Source: Candidatus Moraniibacteriota bacterium (GTDB lineage Bacteria > Patescibacteriota > Minisyncoccia > Moranbacterales > GCA-2747515). From it: a DNA stretch of 61,691 nt. Made by a program: the position numbers and the translations under genes. Positions within the stretch are counted from its first letter, which is position 1. The number at the start of each line of letters is the position of its first letter. The stretch is taken from contig JBBQZC010000007.1 in assembly GCA_038208115.1 (NCBI GenBank), positions 1-61,691 on the forward strand, written 5' to 3'. The notes under the pieces were generated by a model that was given only the letters and a program-made list of their open reading frames with translations, did no database searches and had not been told where the DNA came from. Positions 2-5,530 of the stretch are shown here, piece by piece.

Positions 2-148
2 ATTGATTATCTTATTTGGTACAATACACGAAGAGTACACCACGCTTTCAAAAACAAACTTTCTCCGATACAATTCATATTATCAGAAGGATTTAATCTT
101 AATTTGCCTCAAGAGTGCAAAGTAGGGTGGACGCATACAAAAGATTGA
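2..148 (+). mobile_element. 3' end of an IS481-like (integrase-core) transposase, cut by the window edge; element right end at ...GCATACA (139)
   Basis: Manual translation from position 2 gives IDYLIWYNTRRVHHAFKNKLSPIQF...ECKVGWTHTKD*. The WYNxxRxH...SP motif is typical of the rve/IS481 C-terminus, and the terminal ACA fits IS481 TGT...ACA ends. Confidence 0.7.
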
Positions 149-173
149 CAAAAGTATAAAAATGGTGTATAAT
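145..173 (+). promoter_or_regulatory. consensus sigma70 promoter
   Basis: TTGACA (145-150), 17-bp spacer, TATAAT (168-173). Confidence 0.8.
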
Positions 174-243: not shown

Positions 244-1179
244 ATGCCTAGTATACTGATTAGTACAGTTTGTGCCGCTCTTGTGAGCATCCCCGTAGTA
301 TTTTGTTTAATAAGACTAATTCAAAATTGGTCATGGGGAAAAGTGATCATGACTGTGGTTTGTATTCTTAGTGCGTTGCTTTTTGGTGAATATGTCACTA
401 TTGAGAAAATTGTGAATATGATCCCTGCGTTGTGGGACTTTGCTCAGGAGTTCGGTTTAAGAATTCTGATCATTGCAATTTTAATTCTGTTTGCAGTACA
501 AGTTGCGAGTTTGATTGGAAAATTTTTTGAGAGTAGTGTTTGGCGTATGTTGGTCAATGGTATTCGAATTACGATGAATTTTATTGCCAATATCCATCCC
601 TGGATAGCAAAATGTGTAGTCGGTATCATGTGGCTCACAAATTGCACTCAGATTGCTCTCGCCAGTTTTTATGAAATCGACAATGATGATGATGTGGAGG
701 ACTCAACAGTTAAGGTGCGTGAACTTCATGCAATGAGCTTGCTCTATGACATCATTGATTATTGGGCTGCTGGTCTCTGTGCACTGCTGGTATCATACAT
801 GGTAGAATATCATTGGTCATTTGCAGAAAAAACGGTCGGAGTATGGTTGTTTGATATCGTTTTTGCTCTGAGCGCTTTGTATGGATGTTTCAAATCTGGT
901 AAAGATCTCACATGGGGGGAAGCACATCGGCGAGCACATGATGGAGTTTACGAGCACAATCATGTCGCTGGATGGATTTACAGAATCGTCCAGCATGTAG
1001 TCGGTGTAGTATGGGATGGTCCGGAGCAAATCGTTATTTTTTACAAAAACGAGCTGCGAACTAAATCCAGCATGATCATAATTGCCATAGTTCTGAGTGC
1101 TGTACAAGGTGCATTCTGGACATGGTTGTACACTGTTGGGCATAATACGTTTATTGAACGTATTATGACATGGTTCTGA
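244..1179 (+). CDS. hypothetical multi-pass membrane protein (islet ORFan)
   Basis: 311-aa ORF with several hydrophobic segments, SD GGGAGG, own promoter and terminator. Confidence 0.75.
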   Translation: MPSILISTVCAALVSIPVVFCLIRLIQNWSWGKVIMTVVCILSALLFGEYVTIEKIVNMIPALWDFAQEFGLRILIIAILILFAVQVASLIGKFFESSVWRMLVNGIRITMNFIANIHPWIAKCVVGIMWLTNCTQIALASFYEIDNDDDVEDSTVKVRELHAMSLLYDIIDYWAAGLCALLVSYMVEYHWSFAEKTVGVWLFDIVFALSALYGCFKSGKDLTWGEAHRRAHDGVYEHNHVAGWIYRIVQHVVGVVWDGPEQIVIFYKNELRTKSSMIIIAIVLSAVQGAFWTWLYTVGHNTFIERIMTWF

Positions 1180-1186
1180 GATGTAT

Positions 1187-1225
1187 GAGAGGTATATGTT
1201 TTTTATAAAACACATACCTCTTTTA
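1187..1225 (+). terminator. intrinsic terminator
   Basis: GAGAGGTATATGTTTT / AAAACACATACCTCT hairpin followed by Ts. Confidence 0.65.
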
Positions 1226-1367
1226 ATTTTTTAAAGTGTAAGTACGGAAAAATATGATTTACTTTTAAGTTATCAATTATTATGGTTTAATAAAAAATTT
1301 AATAGTATTACATAAAGCATAAGTATGATATAATTCAAAAAGAATTAAGAGAGTATATATTTTTTGT

Positions 1368-1892
1368 ATGCAAAAGAGAACTTATTCTTAGATAAATCCA
1401 AGTGTTGAAATGCGAAAAACTCCAAATACGGGTAATGGAATTTATGCGACGAAATCTATTGTCAAAGACGATCTAATTTCAGTTTTTGGTGGATATGTAA
1501 TTACGCGTGATGAAGAGCTAATGTTGCCAGAGGAATTTAATGATGAAGGCGTGCAAATAAGTGATAATTTAATACTAGGAATTAAAGACGCGTCAGGCCT
1601 TGAAGATGCGAGTTACGTTAACCATAGTTGTGATCCAAACTCTGGTTTTAAGGGTCAAATATTTCTCGTGGCGATGCGTGATATTAAAGCAGATGAAGAA
1701 ATTACATTTGATTACGCAATGTGCTTATCTCGTATCGAGAAAGAGCCCTATTCTTTTCAATGTGAGTGTGACGCTCCCAATTGTCGTGGAAAAGTAACAG
1801 ATGACGATTGGAAAAATGCTGATATACAAAAAAAATATAATGGATATTTTCAATGGTATTTGCAGGAAAAGATTGATGCGGGTATAAACTAA
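1368..1892 (+). pseudogene. SET-domain protein with an in-frame TAG at codon 8 (or a shortened CDS 1410-1892)
   Basis: Motifs GNGIYAT, YVNHSCDPN, EEITFDY and post-SET CECDAPNCRG. An upstream in-frame ATG at 1368 gives MQKRTYS*INPSVEMRK, with TAG at 1389-1391. Confidence 0.7.
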
Positions 1893-1901
1893 AATAATGT
1901 C

Positions 1902-2638
1902 ATGAAAGAATTTTATGCATTAATAGAAGATGCAAAAACTGAAATTCAGAGACGCTGGCAGGATGAGGAATTAAAAAAAACTAGTGTATAAGTATTTAAA
2001 CGATGATATTCCAGCCATTCTTGAAAGCACCTCGCGCTGTTTTGCTCCGTCATATTATTTCGCCGAATTTGGAATTTTTGAGGTTTTTAGCTATATCAAA
2101 AAAATAAATCTGAGCCCATTGGGATGGGAATATTTAGATGATTTATTTATTAAAACAAATGAGGATAAAATGTGTTTGGCAAAAGGGCTTTTTTGAAAAA
2201 AGATCAGTAAATGGTACGGCAGTTTTTAGCTATAAAAAAATTATTGATTTATCATGATATGAAAAAAAGAAAGTTAAAGATATTAACACTTTGAAGTGTG
2301 AAAATTTTGTGGAATTTCATTATAGATTATTGAATGCATTTGTAAAGGATTGAGTGGATTTATTTGATAGTTCAGCATGGTTAAAAAAACATGGTGGAAA
2401 TGCTAAAAGCTATTATTCGAGTTATTTATCTCTTTTTGTTACTCACGGTGTCTTATTTGAAAACTTTTTAAGCAATGAAAATGAGGGTAAATTCTTTATT
2501 AATGTTTTCATGCCAACATTTGATTTTTTGACAGCATATTATGGATATAAACCAATTATTGTACAGGCAATTCCAGAAGCGGATATCGATGATTTGTATT
2601 GGTGGTGCTATCCAAATTATGTAAAAAAATTTATATAA
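1902..2638 (+). pseudogene. degraded paralogue of the 2811-3551 protein
   Basis: Fragments in shifting frames align with the intact copy: EDAKTEIQRRWQDEELKK / PFLKAPRAVLLRHIISPN / WEYLDDLFIKTNEDKM / HGVLFENF / YWWCY. About 4 frameshifts plus TGA at 2255 and 2351. Confidence 0.85.
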
Positions 2639-2810
2639 AAAAATATGAATTAAAATTATGGTATAGCGCTTGTCTCTTATGACACTGTGATTCGACAAGA
2701 GGGACATTGTTTCGATAAACATATGTTTTTTAAAATAAAAAATATCTTCTTAATTGAAGATGTGATATAATATGGTACAGTAAAATAAGAGGAAAATAAA
2801 ATTACATTTT

Positions 2811-3551
2811 ATGCACGATTATTATACATCACTTGAAGATGCGAGATTAGAAATTCAAAAACGTTGGCAAAACGAAGAATTGAAAAAAAAGGTGAGCGCC
2901 TATCTTGGTGGTGATATTCCTGAACCGTTTTTAAGTGAGCCTCGTGCTGTGTTGGCACGTAACATAGCATCTCCTGACAATGAATTTATGTATTTTTTAG
3001 AGCTTTCAAAAAAAGTTGCTCTTGAGCCAATTAGTTTGGAATATGTTCATGACAAGTTTTTTACAATGAATACTGACAAGATGGCGTATGCGAAGATGCA
3101 GTTTATGAATGATGTAAGACAAATTCATACAGTGCAAATTGTTGATTTTGGAATGTATGATAAAAAGAGATTTGTCGATATAAATACAATAACAGGTGAA
3201 AGCTTAGTAGACTTTCATCATCGTATATTGAATGAATTTGTGGGAAACCAATATAAAACACAAAATATATATGATATGTCAGAGTGGTATCACCGGAGAC
3301 ATGGTCGATCAGTAGATTATTACCGATATTATGTGGCACTTTTTGTGTGTCATGGAATATTATTTGAAAATTTTGTCACGGATGATTCGGAGGCAGGATT
3401 TGAAAAAAAAATTGTTTTGCCTGCATTACAAGAAATACAAAAACGTTTTGGATTTAAGCCACTAATCGTTCCATTAGCGCCAGATCCAACTGATGCATAT
3501 TGGTGGAGTTATTCTGATGTTCTTGAAAAATATGTGAACTTCAAAAATTAA
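2811..3551 (+). CDS. conserved hypothetical cytoplasmic protein (~245-aa family, seen twice here)
   Basis: Intact 246-aa ORF, paralogous to the upstream pseudogene. Extended -10 TGATATAAT near 2764-2772. Confidence 0.85.
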   Translation: MHDYYTSLEDARLEIQKRWQNEELKKKVSAYLGGDIPEPFLSEPRAVLARNIASPDNEFMYFLELSKKVALEPISLEYVHDKFFTMNTDKMAYAKMQFMNDVRQIHTVQIVDFGMYDKKRFVDINTITGESLVDFHHRILNEFVGNQYKTQNIYDMSEWYHRRHGRSVDYYRYYVALFVCHGILFENFVTDDSEAGFEKKIVLPALQEIQKRFGFKPLIVPLAPDPTDAYWWSYSDVLEKYVNFKN

Positions 3552-3562
3552 ATAAAAAAAAT

Positions 3563-5272
3563 ATGAATTTCAATTTTGTTTCTCATTTAGAAACGTGCTA
3601 TAATGCAGTACAGCAAAACACTACGCTTTTGTACTATTCTCATATTCCGACAGCAATCATAATATTGTTTGTGGGTTTTTTTGTTCTTTCTAAAAATAGG
3701 TCATTATTGAGTAAAATATTATTTGGCATAACGGTTACATTCTCTCTTTGGATTATTTTAAATTTGATTGTTTGGACTAATTATAATAGTGAGTTGATTA
3801 TGTTTTCGTGGGCAGTTCTAAATGTTTTTGATGTCTTATTTTATGTGCTATGTTTTTACTTTGTTTATGTATTTATTGAAAAAAAAGACGTATCATTTGG
3901 CGTTAAGATGATTATCTCGCTGATTTTATCATTAATTGTCATTTTTTCACTAACAACGTATCATTTACAAGGATTTTTTTACAATGATTGTGTGGCCATT
4001 GAGGGCGAAATATTTCTTGATGTAATATTTTATATAGAACTTGGAATTTCTTTTGCAATTATTTTCTTTTGTATTTCAAAATATATTTTTGCAGGCAGGG
4101 ATGATAAACGGCAAATTCTTGTGCTGATGTTTGGCATGTCAGTGTTTTTGTTGTCTTTTTTTGTTGCCGGATATTTGGCAGATTATTATGGAGAATATGA
4201 CATAGAATTGTATGGTCTTTTTGGCATAATCATCTTTATGGCGTCACTGGCATACCTAATTGTGCAGCACAGTGCATTGGATATTAAGCTTGCGCGGGCA
4301 CAAGCTCTCGTATGGTCATTGATTTTCCTTATCGGAGCACAATTTTTCTTTATCCGTAATCCGACTAATCAAGTGCTTAATAGCATCGCTTTTGTTTTGG
4401 TGTGCTTTGTGGGATATGGCGTTGTAAAAAGCGTCAAACGCGAGGAACAACAGAACGATCGACTCATTCATTTTTCCAAAGAGTTGACGCGTGCCAACGC
4501 TGAACTAAAGAAACTTGATAGTGCCAAATCAGAATTTATCTCTATCGCATCACATCAGCTCCGTACGCCACTCACAGCGATCAAAGGATATATCTCACTC
4601 ATCCTCGAGGGTGCATACGGTACGAATGCAGAGCGTACCGATGATGCGCTTAATAAGATCTTTCTCGCCAATGAGCGACTCATCCAGCTCGTAGAAGACA
4701 TGCTCAATCTCACACGTATCGAGTCAGGACGATTGGATTATCATCTCGAAAGTAACGTGCAAGTTGAGGAAATTTTATCAGAACTCAAAGACATGTTCAT
4801 CTTGCGTGCAAAGGATAAGGGTCTCGAATTAACGATCATGGAATCTGAAAAATTAACACCTCTCATTACTGCGGACAAATCGAAATTGCGTGAAGTAATC
4901 TCCAACTTGATGGATAATGCAATCAAATATACAAAGCAAGGATTTGTGCGTGTATCAGCAGAACCAATCGGCAATGTTGTGCGTATCACCATCGCAGACT
5001 CTGGTATGGGTATATCAGAAGAATCGATAAAGACACTATTTACCAAGTTTTCACGTGGAACGGACTCAACTAAAGTGTATACAGATGGCTCGGGACTCGG
5101 ATTGTATGTGGGAAAAAATTTGATTGAATCTCAAGGTGGACATATTTATATCGAATCTGATGGTGTGGACAAGGGGTCGCGGTTCATCATCGAAATGCCA
5201 ATCAAAAGAGATAATGTGGTCATGGATCAAGAGAAACGATCTTTTGTAGAGGGCGACGGTATCAAGCAATAA
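3563..5272 (+). CDS. sensor histidine kinase with multi-TM N-terminal region (HisKA + HATPase_c)
   Basis: H-box EFISIASHQLRTPLT, N-box NLMDNAIKYT, G1 DSGMGI, G2 GSGLGL. About 9 hydrophobic segments in the first 290 aa. Confidence 0.93.
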   Translation: MNFNFVSHLETCYNAVQQNTTLLYYSHIPTAIIILFVGFFVLSKNRSLLSKILFGITVTFSLWIILNLIVWTNYNSELIMFSWAVLNVFDVLFYVLCFYFVYVFIEKKDVSFGVKMIISLILSLIVIFSLTTYHLQGFFYNDCVAIEGEIFLDVIFYIELGISFAIIFFCISKYIFAGRDDKRQILVLMFGMSVFLLSFFVAGYLADYYGEYDIELYGLFGIIIFMASLAYLIVQHSALDIKLARAQALVWSLIFLIGAQFFFIRNPTNQVLNSIAFVLVCFVGYGVVKSVKREEQQNDRLIHFSKELTRANAELKKLDSAKSEFISIASHQLRTPLTAIKGYISLILEGAYGTNAERTDDALNKIFLANERLIQLVEDMLNLTRIESGRLDYHLESNVQVEEILSELKDMFILRAKDKGLELTIMESEKLTPLITADKSKLREVISNLMDNAIKYTKQGFVRVSAEPIGNVVRITIADSGMGISEESIKTLFTKFSRGTDSTKVYTDGSGLGLYVGKNLIESQGGHIYIESDGVDKGSRFIIEMPIKRDNVVMDQEKRSFVEGDGIKQ

Positions 5273-5384: not shown

Positions 5385-5530
5385 CTTAAGAAGTGCTTCG
5401 AAAGGGGATTTATTCAAAGATTCTCAGTGTCTGGTTGGATGTGACTTTTACATTCAAACGCCCCCCTGCGCCAACGCCAGACACTGAGAATCATCTCAAC
5501 GCCTTGCGGCTTACCGTAAGGCTTTTTTAT
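5385..5530 (+). ncRNA. candidate structured ncRNA or palindromic element upstream of the secE promoter
   Basis: Perfect 16-bp inverted repeat 5419-5434/5477-5492, then a terminator-like hairpin 5501-5522 plus T6. Confidence 0.4.

Follow-up and report, generated by a model that had tools for sequence, protein, structure and literature searches.

A nine-helix histidine kinase and an unannotated partner family in Patescibacteria: a candidate amine-linked signaling cassette and its apparently reduced, partly decayed copy in a Moraniibacteriota genome

What might a small soluble protein of an unannotated family be doing directly in front of a polytopic histidine kinase in a bacterium of the candidate phyla radiation (CPR; Patescibacteria)? 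These bacteria have tiny genomes and few regulators, and to our knowledge little is established on how they sense hosts or each other. The question is raised by contig JBBQZC010000007.1 of Candidatus Moraniibacteriota bacterium (GenBank assembly GCA_038208115.1), of which positions 1 to 61,691 of the forward strand were analyzed and are referred to here as the window. Near its start, five features lie co-oriented on the plus strand: genes for a multi-transmembrane protein (here named TM311) and a SET-domain methyltransferase, a pseudogene (here psiFAM), the intact gene of a family of about 250 residues (here named FAM; 2811 to 3551) and the kinase gene. A sequence-only reading had proposed the last four, all of which are present, as a possible pair of signal synthase and receptor. 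Our best reading of the block is a reduced, partly decayed variant of a signaling cassette that is conserved in Patescibacteria.

FAM loci were surveyed in one genome per species by custom open reading frame calling and profile hidden Markov models (HMMs). Of the 80 loci obtained, nearly all from metagenome-assembled genomes of Patescibacteria type and many phylogenetically non-independent, 78 carry FAM, and 68 had enough downstream sequence for testing adjacency. In 45 of these 68, the gene following FAM encodes a kinase homologous to that of the window in both its nine-helix region and its catalytic core, with a median gap of 7 bp and eight overlapping pairs. A kinase homologous in both regions lies within 6 kb of FAM in 58 of the 78 loci; several loci without direct adjacency have a SET gene between the two. 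First look-ups on long contigs had likewise placed a kinase of 547 to 588 residues directly after FAM in six of six homologues. Seen from the kinase side, all 55 kinases with a homologous transmembrane (TM) region in the surveyed loci are located in the cassette (55/55), and FAM stands directly upstream in three of five loci of a sample picked by the kinase TM domain alone. The two exceptions without FAM have a SET gene (L091) or a SpeD-SpeE fusion (L092) beside the kinase. The survey thus bears out the proposal that FAM is tied specifically and widely to this kinase family, which the sequence-only reading had itself named as the point on which it could fail; from their spacing FAM is predicted to be cotranscribed, and often translationally coupled, with the nine-helix kinase. 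In L091 (1235-5695), the order is response regulator, kinase, SET, kinase; the SET gene overlaps the start of the second kinase, so that SET can evidently partner this kinase family directly.

The kinase gene of the window (3563 to 5272, plus strand) begins 11 bp after the FAM stop codon and encodes 569 residues with HisKA (E 1.6e-17) and HATPase_c (E 4.8e-24) domains, the H-box and ATP-binding motifs being intact. H331, N448/N452, G481/G483 and G511/G513 are conserved across 55 orthologues, as expected of a HisKA-type kinase. The prediction places nine TM segments in residues 25 to 288, the largest external loop being about 21 residues long; the earlier description of about nine segments without a large periplasmic domain was therefore accurate. 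The N terminus is assigned to the outside because the catalytic core is placed inside the cell. Against HisKA_7TM (PF16927) the protein scores 19.6 bits, with a cut-off of 28.6, and several orthologues carry a precomputed PF16927 match. Two cysteines predicted to be external, C12 in the N-terminal tail and C143 in the TM4-TM5 loop, occur in at least 85% of the 55 orthologues, in which several tryptophans are conserved as well. The pair hints at a disulfide outside the membrane, where the cysteine-rich protein C10 described below might dock.

As the sequence-only reading had stated, no receiver domain and hence no cognate regulator was detected in the window (REC HMM, best E 0.15); a second kinase is also absent from its 61.7 kb. 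Regulators linked to the cassette were found in nine surveyed loci as well as in L001 and L093, and are receiver-only or double-receiver proteins without an output domain. Double-receiver proteins of 265 to 274 residues follow the kinase in L017 (8548-9360), L019, L046, L049 and L078, and other loci have single receivers of 124 residues. No DNA-binding output domain was linked to this kinase family in the loci examined, the sole match to an OmpR-type regulator (L012) adjoining a kinase outside the cassette.

FAM of the window is a cytosolic alpha/beta protein of 246 residues. It has no match in Pfam, NCBIfam or PADLOC; the PADLOC defense-protein models also gave no match for SET, TM311 or the membrane protein M200 (see below). 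At least 193 homologues were found in a set of 5.8 billion proteins, the named ones all labeled hypothetical, and the family comprises 989 clusters at E ≤ 1e-3 in a library clustered at 50% identity. An AlphaFold2 model built from a 50-sequence alignment (predicted local distance difference test [pLDDT] 94.7, predicted template modeling score 0.91) has a helical hairpin at the N terminus, after which strands and helices alternate in a Rossmann-like manner. K90, H136, F178 and P217 are invariant, K90 being present in 50 of 50 sequences. The full set of invariant or nearly invariant positions comprises R50, [ST]54-P55-[ND]-x-E58, E77, D81, N87, K90, F135-H136-H137, D155, W159, G182-x-L-F-E186-N187, E194 and K216-P217, and the conserved motifs are DFHH, HGxLFEN and, behind strand 1, [ST]-P-[ND]-x-E. 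In the model, these residues lie at strand ends and helix starts, which are typical positions of an active or binding site for this type of fold.

Structure prediction and fold search on 2811-3551, as the sequence-only reading had suggested, matched no housekeeping enzyme. Foldseek returned nothing significant from PDB or BFVD, with no E ≤ 1e-3 among the 50 PDB matches listed. The weak matches, mostly of the HUP class in both libraries (E 0.08 to 1, TM-score about 0.3), were to tyrosyl-tRNA synthetases (best), TtuA, adenine-alpha-hydrolase, cytidylyltransferases, QueC and NMNAT. With HUP-class domains (class I aminoacyl-tRNA synthetases [aaRSs], nucleotidyltransferases, PP-loop ATPases and universal stress proteins [USPs]) FAM shares its strand-loop-helix start and these weak structural matches. 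It differs from them in that all matches are non-significant, profile comparisons are negative and the signature motifs are absent: the conserved columns contain no HIGH, SGGxDS, GxxG or glycine-rich nucleotide-binding signature. Membership in the class I aaRSs by sequence was rejected, with hhalign probabilities of 0.4% for TrpRS and 0.1% for CysRS and of 0.1% for the class II control AspRS. With the single sequence as query, phmmer matched human Pim-1 kinase (E 1e-3); the family profile did not reproduce this match, which was treated as spurious because it was based on residues that are not conserved in the family.

Clustering of the neighboring genes gave the core order M200 or EamA/DMT, C10, FAM, kinase. 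C10, the commonest gene directly upstream of FAM (47 of 78 loci; e.g., L017:5442-5942, L037 and L093:1870-2352), encodes 115 to 170 residues with an N-terminal TM anchor and about 100 residues containing 10 conserved cysteines; it matches nothing in Pfam, and its C-terminal tail is strongly acidic in those examples that were inspected. M200, a helical membrane protein of about 200 residues, is present in 36 loci, and its model (pLDDT 88.7) has no structural relative in PDB (E > 5). EamA/DMT-type proteins occur in 24 loci, and 66 of the 78 loci have one of these two or TM311. Homology of M200 to TM311 was not shown (hhalign probability 11%).

Transferases recur as further partners. SET is adjacent to FAM in 15 of 78 loci and fused to it in at least four protein clusters, which makes it the genuine functional partner that the sequence-only reading had supposed. 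GNAT is fused to FAM in three clusters and in L015, and belongs to a dedicated subfamily that also occurs as a separate gene just upstream of FAM (L001 and L025). Fusions of a multi-TM domain to FAM exist too (P0173 and P0238), their TM domains matching none of M200, EamA or TM311. P0138 combines FAM with a C-terminal cysteine-rich domain containing a CxxCxxxCC stretch; in L092 (3461-3889, minus strand), a CxxCxxCC (PF03692) protein adjoins the kinase, and the P0138 domain may be the same, which would make it another recurrent accessory. Radical S-adenosylmethionine (SAM) genes lie within 6 kb of the cassette in 8 of 78 loci (L020, L027, L030, L035, L047, L061, L072 and L079), with varying orientation and distance; the L020/L005 example is a radical SAM protein with a SPASM domain by Pfam. 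Such genes may have a bearing on the cysteine-rich C10. On contigs binned to non-CPR phyla, labels that are unverified, FAM was found with M200 and with SET, GNAT or SpeE and without the kinase. The labels that submitters gave to many loci whose gene content is of CPR type are heterogeneous (for example, Micavibrio, Bdellovibrionales or Saccharibacteria; L011, L013, L017, L023 and others) and were not used for taxonomy.

Against this background, the copy in the window is incomplete. Its 61.7 kb contain no C10, M200, EamA, FAM-associated GNAT subfamily (GNAT-F) or polyamine genes. TM311 (244 to 1179, plus strand), a multi-TM protein of 311 residues without a Pfam match, acts in this variant of the cassette as an accessory membrane component: over its C-terminal 220 residues it matches neighbor-gene cluster 16 (E 6e-75), which is located just upstream of FAM in L011, L025, L029, L031/32/38 and L090. 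The order TM311-SET-psiFAM-FAM-kinase matches that of L011 and L090. In L011 (assembly GCA_020718085.1), C10 and SpeD/E follow 4 to 6 kb further upstream, which would be beyond the start of the window, together with an ATP-binding cassette (ABC) transporter.

Two genes of the block are damaged. The sequence-only reading was right about the SET domain (Pfam SET, E 1.1e-13) in the gene at 1368 to 1892 (plus strand), and wrong about its reading frame, since translation from 1368 runs into a TAG at 1389-1391. ATG 1368 is the ancestral start, and a DNA alignment shows TGG (Trp8) in the syntenic orthologue of L011 where codon 8 is now TAG. This nonsense codon leaves an open frame only from ATG 1410 to 1892, which could give a product of 160 residues, 14 fewer than before. 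Of the two paralogues described earlier for the family, both carry its motifs, and the first, psiFAM (1903 to 2638, plus strand), is a pseudogene. It aligns to residues 1 to 242 of intact FAM at about 35% identity only across three frames, with at least three to four frame changes and several in-frame stops, and retains the motifs PRAVLLRHIISP, EYLDDLF, FH, HGVLFENF and YWWCY. Given an identity of only 35%, the duplication must be old. Reading TGA or TAG as sense does not rescue the gene, as the frame changes persist. Logan contigs from two runs of one sediment-metagenome study, covering 1300-3600 in one run, which may be the source sample, and 2214-2626 in a second sample, show 0 differences from the window sequence; errors of a single assembly are therefore an unlikely source of the stops and frameshifts. 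In the same run, a Logan reassembly contig stops about 112 bp inside the window.

L090 offers a counterpart with the same gene neighborhood: a TM311 homologue leads into four tandem, divergent FAM paralogues (747-3903; 29 to 51% identical), after which come one kinase and then secE-nusG-rplK. The psiFAM-FAM pair looks like the decayed remnant of such a tandem array. G+C content falls to 0.30 over 2001-4000, which includes the pseudogene and FAM, versus 0.36 to 0.42 in the remaining window. With a dead FAM copy, a truncated SET gene, low G+C and no regulator within 61 kb, the cassette is eroding in this genome and may be only partly functional here.

As to transcription signals, a promoter-like site at 145 to 173 (plus strand; TTGACA-17-TATAAT, 12/12) lies ahead of TM311 and another at 1307 to 1334 (plus strand; ATTACA-16-TATAAT with TG) ahead of SET; both are consensus matches only, in a region where such sites are about as numerous as expected from shuffled sequence. 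A terminator-like hairpin at 5501 to 5522 (plus strand; 9-bp stem with 6 GC pairs and a T-tract, a pattern match only) stands between the block and secE-nusG-rplK-rplA and would close the operon.

What, then, could FAM act on? Of the 78 loci, 11 have genes for AdoMet decarboxylase and/or spermidine synthase within the cassette or next to it, arranged in at least five different orders. L001 and L092 have such genes too; the instance in L003 is a duplicate, being the same contig as L011. A second, unrelated set, namely arginine decarboxylase, a deoxyhypusine-synthase-like gene and agmatinase, is linked in five to seven loci. In L045, a GC-rich contig binned to Desulfobulbaceae (label unverified), a saccharopine-dehydrogenase-type gene directly precedes M200-FAM; an enzyme of this type shares the architecture of homospermidine synthase or carboxyspermidine dehydrogenase. 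The groups on which SET, GNAT and aminopropyltransferases act are in each case primary amines, and an amine- or polyamine-type substrate or ligand is therefore the simplest common denominator. At the level of gene content, the polyamine genes, the GNAT fusions and the kinase-free FAM-M200 contigs point to amine or polyamine chemistry, a body of evidence that fits metabolite sensing or envelope modification as well as it fits cell-cell communication.

The reading we prefer, at a probability of roughly 0.4, is that FAM converts or carries an amine or polyamine-type compound that SET or GNAT tailors, the membrane partner moves and the kinase reads. FAM would bind, and probably convert, a primary-amine compound, for which a polyamine or polyamine derivative is the likeliest candidate; a methyl group from SET or an acetyl group from GNAT would cap its amine; the membrane partner would move it across or into the membrane; the polytopic domain of the kinase, aided outside by C10 where present, would read it; and the kinase would phosphorylate stand-alone receiver proteins. 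Several points weigh against this proposal. Neither the structure nor profile searches allow a catalytic activity, cofactor or substrate to be assigned to FAM, and the loop after strand 1 lacks a glycine-rich nucleotide motif. For M200, no structural relative was identified, so that "transport" is guesswork except where EamA is present. Polyamine genes are found in only about a quarter of the loci, many of them non-independent as stated above, and the window itself contributes none. Tight coupling and tandem arrays of up to four FAM genes before one kinase suit a bound co-sensor at least equally, and nothing observed here shows that a compound leaves the cell. A bolder form of the proposal, which we consider doubtful, would make FAM a new enzyme class producing a methylated or acetylated polyamine that is exported by M200/EamA and read by C10 and the nine-helix kinase; this would amount to a polyamine autoinducer or host-sensing circuit of ultra-small symbionts, kinase-free in some other anaerobes, with the tandem FAM arrays as "dialects".

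Other assignments of roles were considered for the same genes. It is quite possible that FAM is a cytoplasmic co-sensor or regulatory subunit, which would bind a metabolite inside the cell (a polyamine, a nucleotide or a SAM-derived compound) and set the activity of the kinase by docking on it. The cassette would then serve homeostatic feedback and not communication; GraX with GraS and PII with NtrB are parallels, as is the USP domain of KdpD. Short gaps and overlapping genes are usual for stoichiometric partners, arrays of two to four divergent FAM paralogues precede a single kinase, and the receiver-only regulators suggest protein-protein outputs. The weak fold matches fall into the HUP class, which includes the ligand-binding USP proteins, and the conserved acidic and aromatic residues of FAM would suit a polycation pocket. 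However, FAM occurs with M200, SET, GNAT or SpeE on kinase-free, non-CPR-binned contigs, and its core job should therefore be independent of the kinase; kinases of this family also exist without FAM (L091 and L092), and proteins fused to group-transfer enzymes of two kinds more typically catalyze successive steps of a pathway. An unlikely explanation is a system for envelope charge or surface amines in which FAM, together with the membrane partner, would link an amine or polyamine to a wall polymer or lipid while the kinase and C10 sense cationic stress, in analogy to PmrAB/Arn, GraRS-VraFG, Dlt and MprF. No glycosyl-, acyl- or lipid-transferase is conserved in the cassette, M200 has no recognizable fold relative and nothing points directly to a lipid or wall substrate, even though FAM almost always stands beside a membrane protein (in the 66 loci mentioned), EamA/DMT relatives include Arn flippase subunits and the MdtJI spermidine exporter, the inspected C10 proteins carry an acidic tail after the 10-cysteine domain, and the kinase lacks a ligand-binding ectodomain like intramembrane-sensing kinases.

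FAM might itself be the target, SET or GNAT modifying its lysine K90 and the modification state switching the kinase, loosely like the CheR/CheB methylation of chemoreceptors. The invariance of K90 would fit, as would the fact that dedicated subfamilies of SET and GNAT adjoin FAM or are fused to it; SET enzymes methylate lysines of proteins, and the deoxyhypusine-synthase-like gene linked in five loci belongs to a family that modifies a protein lysine. We nevertheless regard a lysine switch as quite improbable: about 60 of the 78 cassettes have neither SET nor GNAT nearby, fusions of an enzyme to its substrate are unusual, and so many conserved polar residues would sooner be expected of a binding or active site than of one modified position. 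The resemblance to cyclodipeptide synthases (CDPSs) seen in the sequence-only reading, which would make FAM an aminoacyl-tRNA-dependent signal synthase, did not hold up and is very improbable. FAM is of a similar size to the CDPSs AlbC, Rv2275 and YvmC, and its Ser/Thr-Pro loop, [ST]-P-[ND]-x-E, follows strand 1 where solved CDPSs have G-x-S-x-x-N-S-x-F; CDPSs resemble the tyrosyl-tRNA synthetase fold class, and tyrosyl-tRNA synthetases of five organisms were the best, non-significant PDB matches. Profile, Pfam and fold searches gave no support, though. An alignment of four solved CDPSs was rebuilt from a PDB search and compared profile to profile with that of FAM (50 sequences) by hhalign, which gave a probability of 0.13% with no motif aligned, next to the 0.4% for TrpRS. 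None of the 50 FAM members matches Pfam CDPS (PF16715) even at E ≤ 10, no CDPS chain is among the 50 Foldseek matches listed although several are present in the PDB copy searched, and no equivalents of CDPS Y178, E182 and Y202 were identified. Genes for aaRSs (AspRS, CysRS and TrpRS) lie near the cassette in about 30% of the loci, by a rough estimate the chance rate for gene-dense CPR genomes. With hhalign and the fold search both negative, the local likeness of the loop is no evidence of membership.

Two-component systems with accessory proteins are a known kind, and several resemble the FAM cassette in part. In LuxM-LuxN, AinS-AinR, CqsA-CqsS and LqsA-LqsS, a gene for a soluble protein likewise stands beside that of a kinase with a TM-bundle sensor and no large ectodomain, and LuxN also has nine TM segments. 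As FAM matches no Pfam or NCBIfam family, it also matches none of the known autoinducer synthase families (LuxI/LuxM/AinS, CqsA and LuxS); the cassette further differs from these pairs by its cysteine-rich and additional membrane proteins, and by receiver-only linked regulators in place of Lux-type phosphorelay proteins. The gene logic of ComQXPA and Agr could be read into the order of C10 as precursor or accessory, FAM as modifier and a polytopic kinase, and the diversification of FAM paralogues resembles pherotype variation. In contrast to those systems, C10 is a membrane-anchored 10-cysteine protein of 115 to 170 residues, not a short pre-peptide, and is absent from the window; FAM is neither a prenyltransferase nor an AgrB-type protease, and the kinase is of HisKA and not of HPK10 type. 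GraXRS-VraFG and intramembrane-sensing kinases share the combination of a cytosolic Rossmann-like accessory, an ectodomain-less kinase and membrane partners; yet FAM has no homology to GraX, no ABC transporter is conserved and FAM also occurs kinase-free. NspS-MbaA of Vibrio cholerae, which senses norspermidine through the periplasmic PotD-type protein NspS and the cyclic di-GMP enzyme MbaA, similarly ties polyamine metabolism to a membrane signaling protein, but FAM, the candidate ligand handler, is cytosolic and the transducer is a histidine kinase.

Full-text literature searches found no published description of the FAM-kinase cassette, and the Lipocone paper does not cover it. The accessory families FAM, C10 and M200, their breadth across CPR lineages and the link to SET, GNAT and polyamine genes appear to be undescribed in the libraries and full texts searched. 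The cassette thus presents a kinase family that across many CPR lineages is locked to three unannotated families, two of which have confident models and no structural relative. A soluble protein of 250 residues together with its kinase, tied to amine or polyamine chemistry, offers a concrete and testable entry point into sensing in these bacteria. If FAM is an enzyme, amine or polyamine metabolism would gain a family that is new at the level of the fold and comprises about 1,000 sequence clusters.

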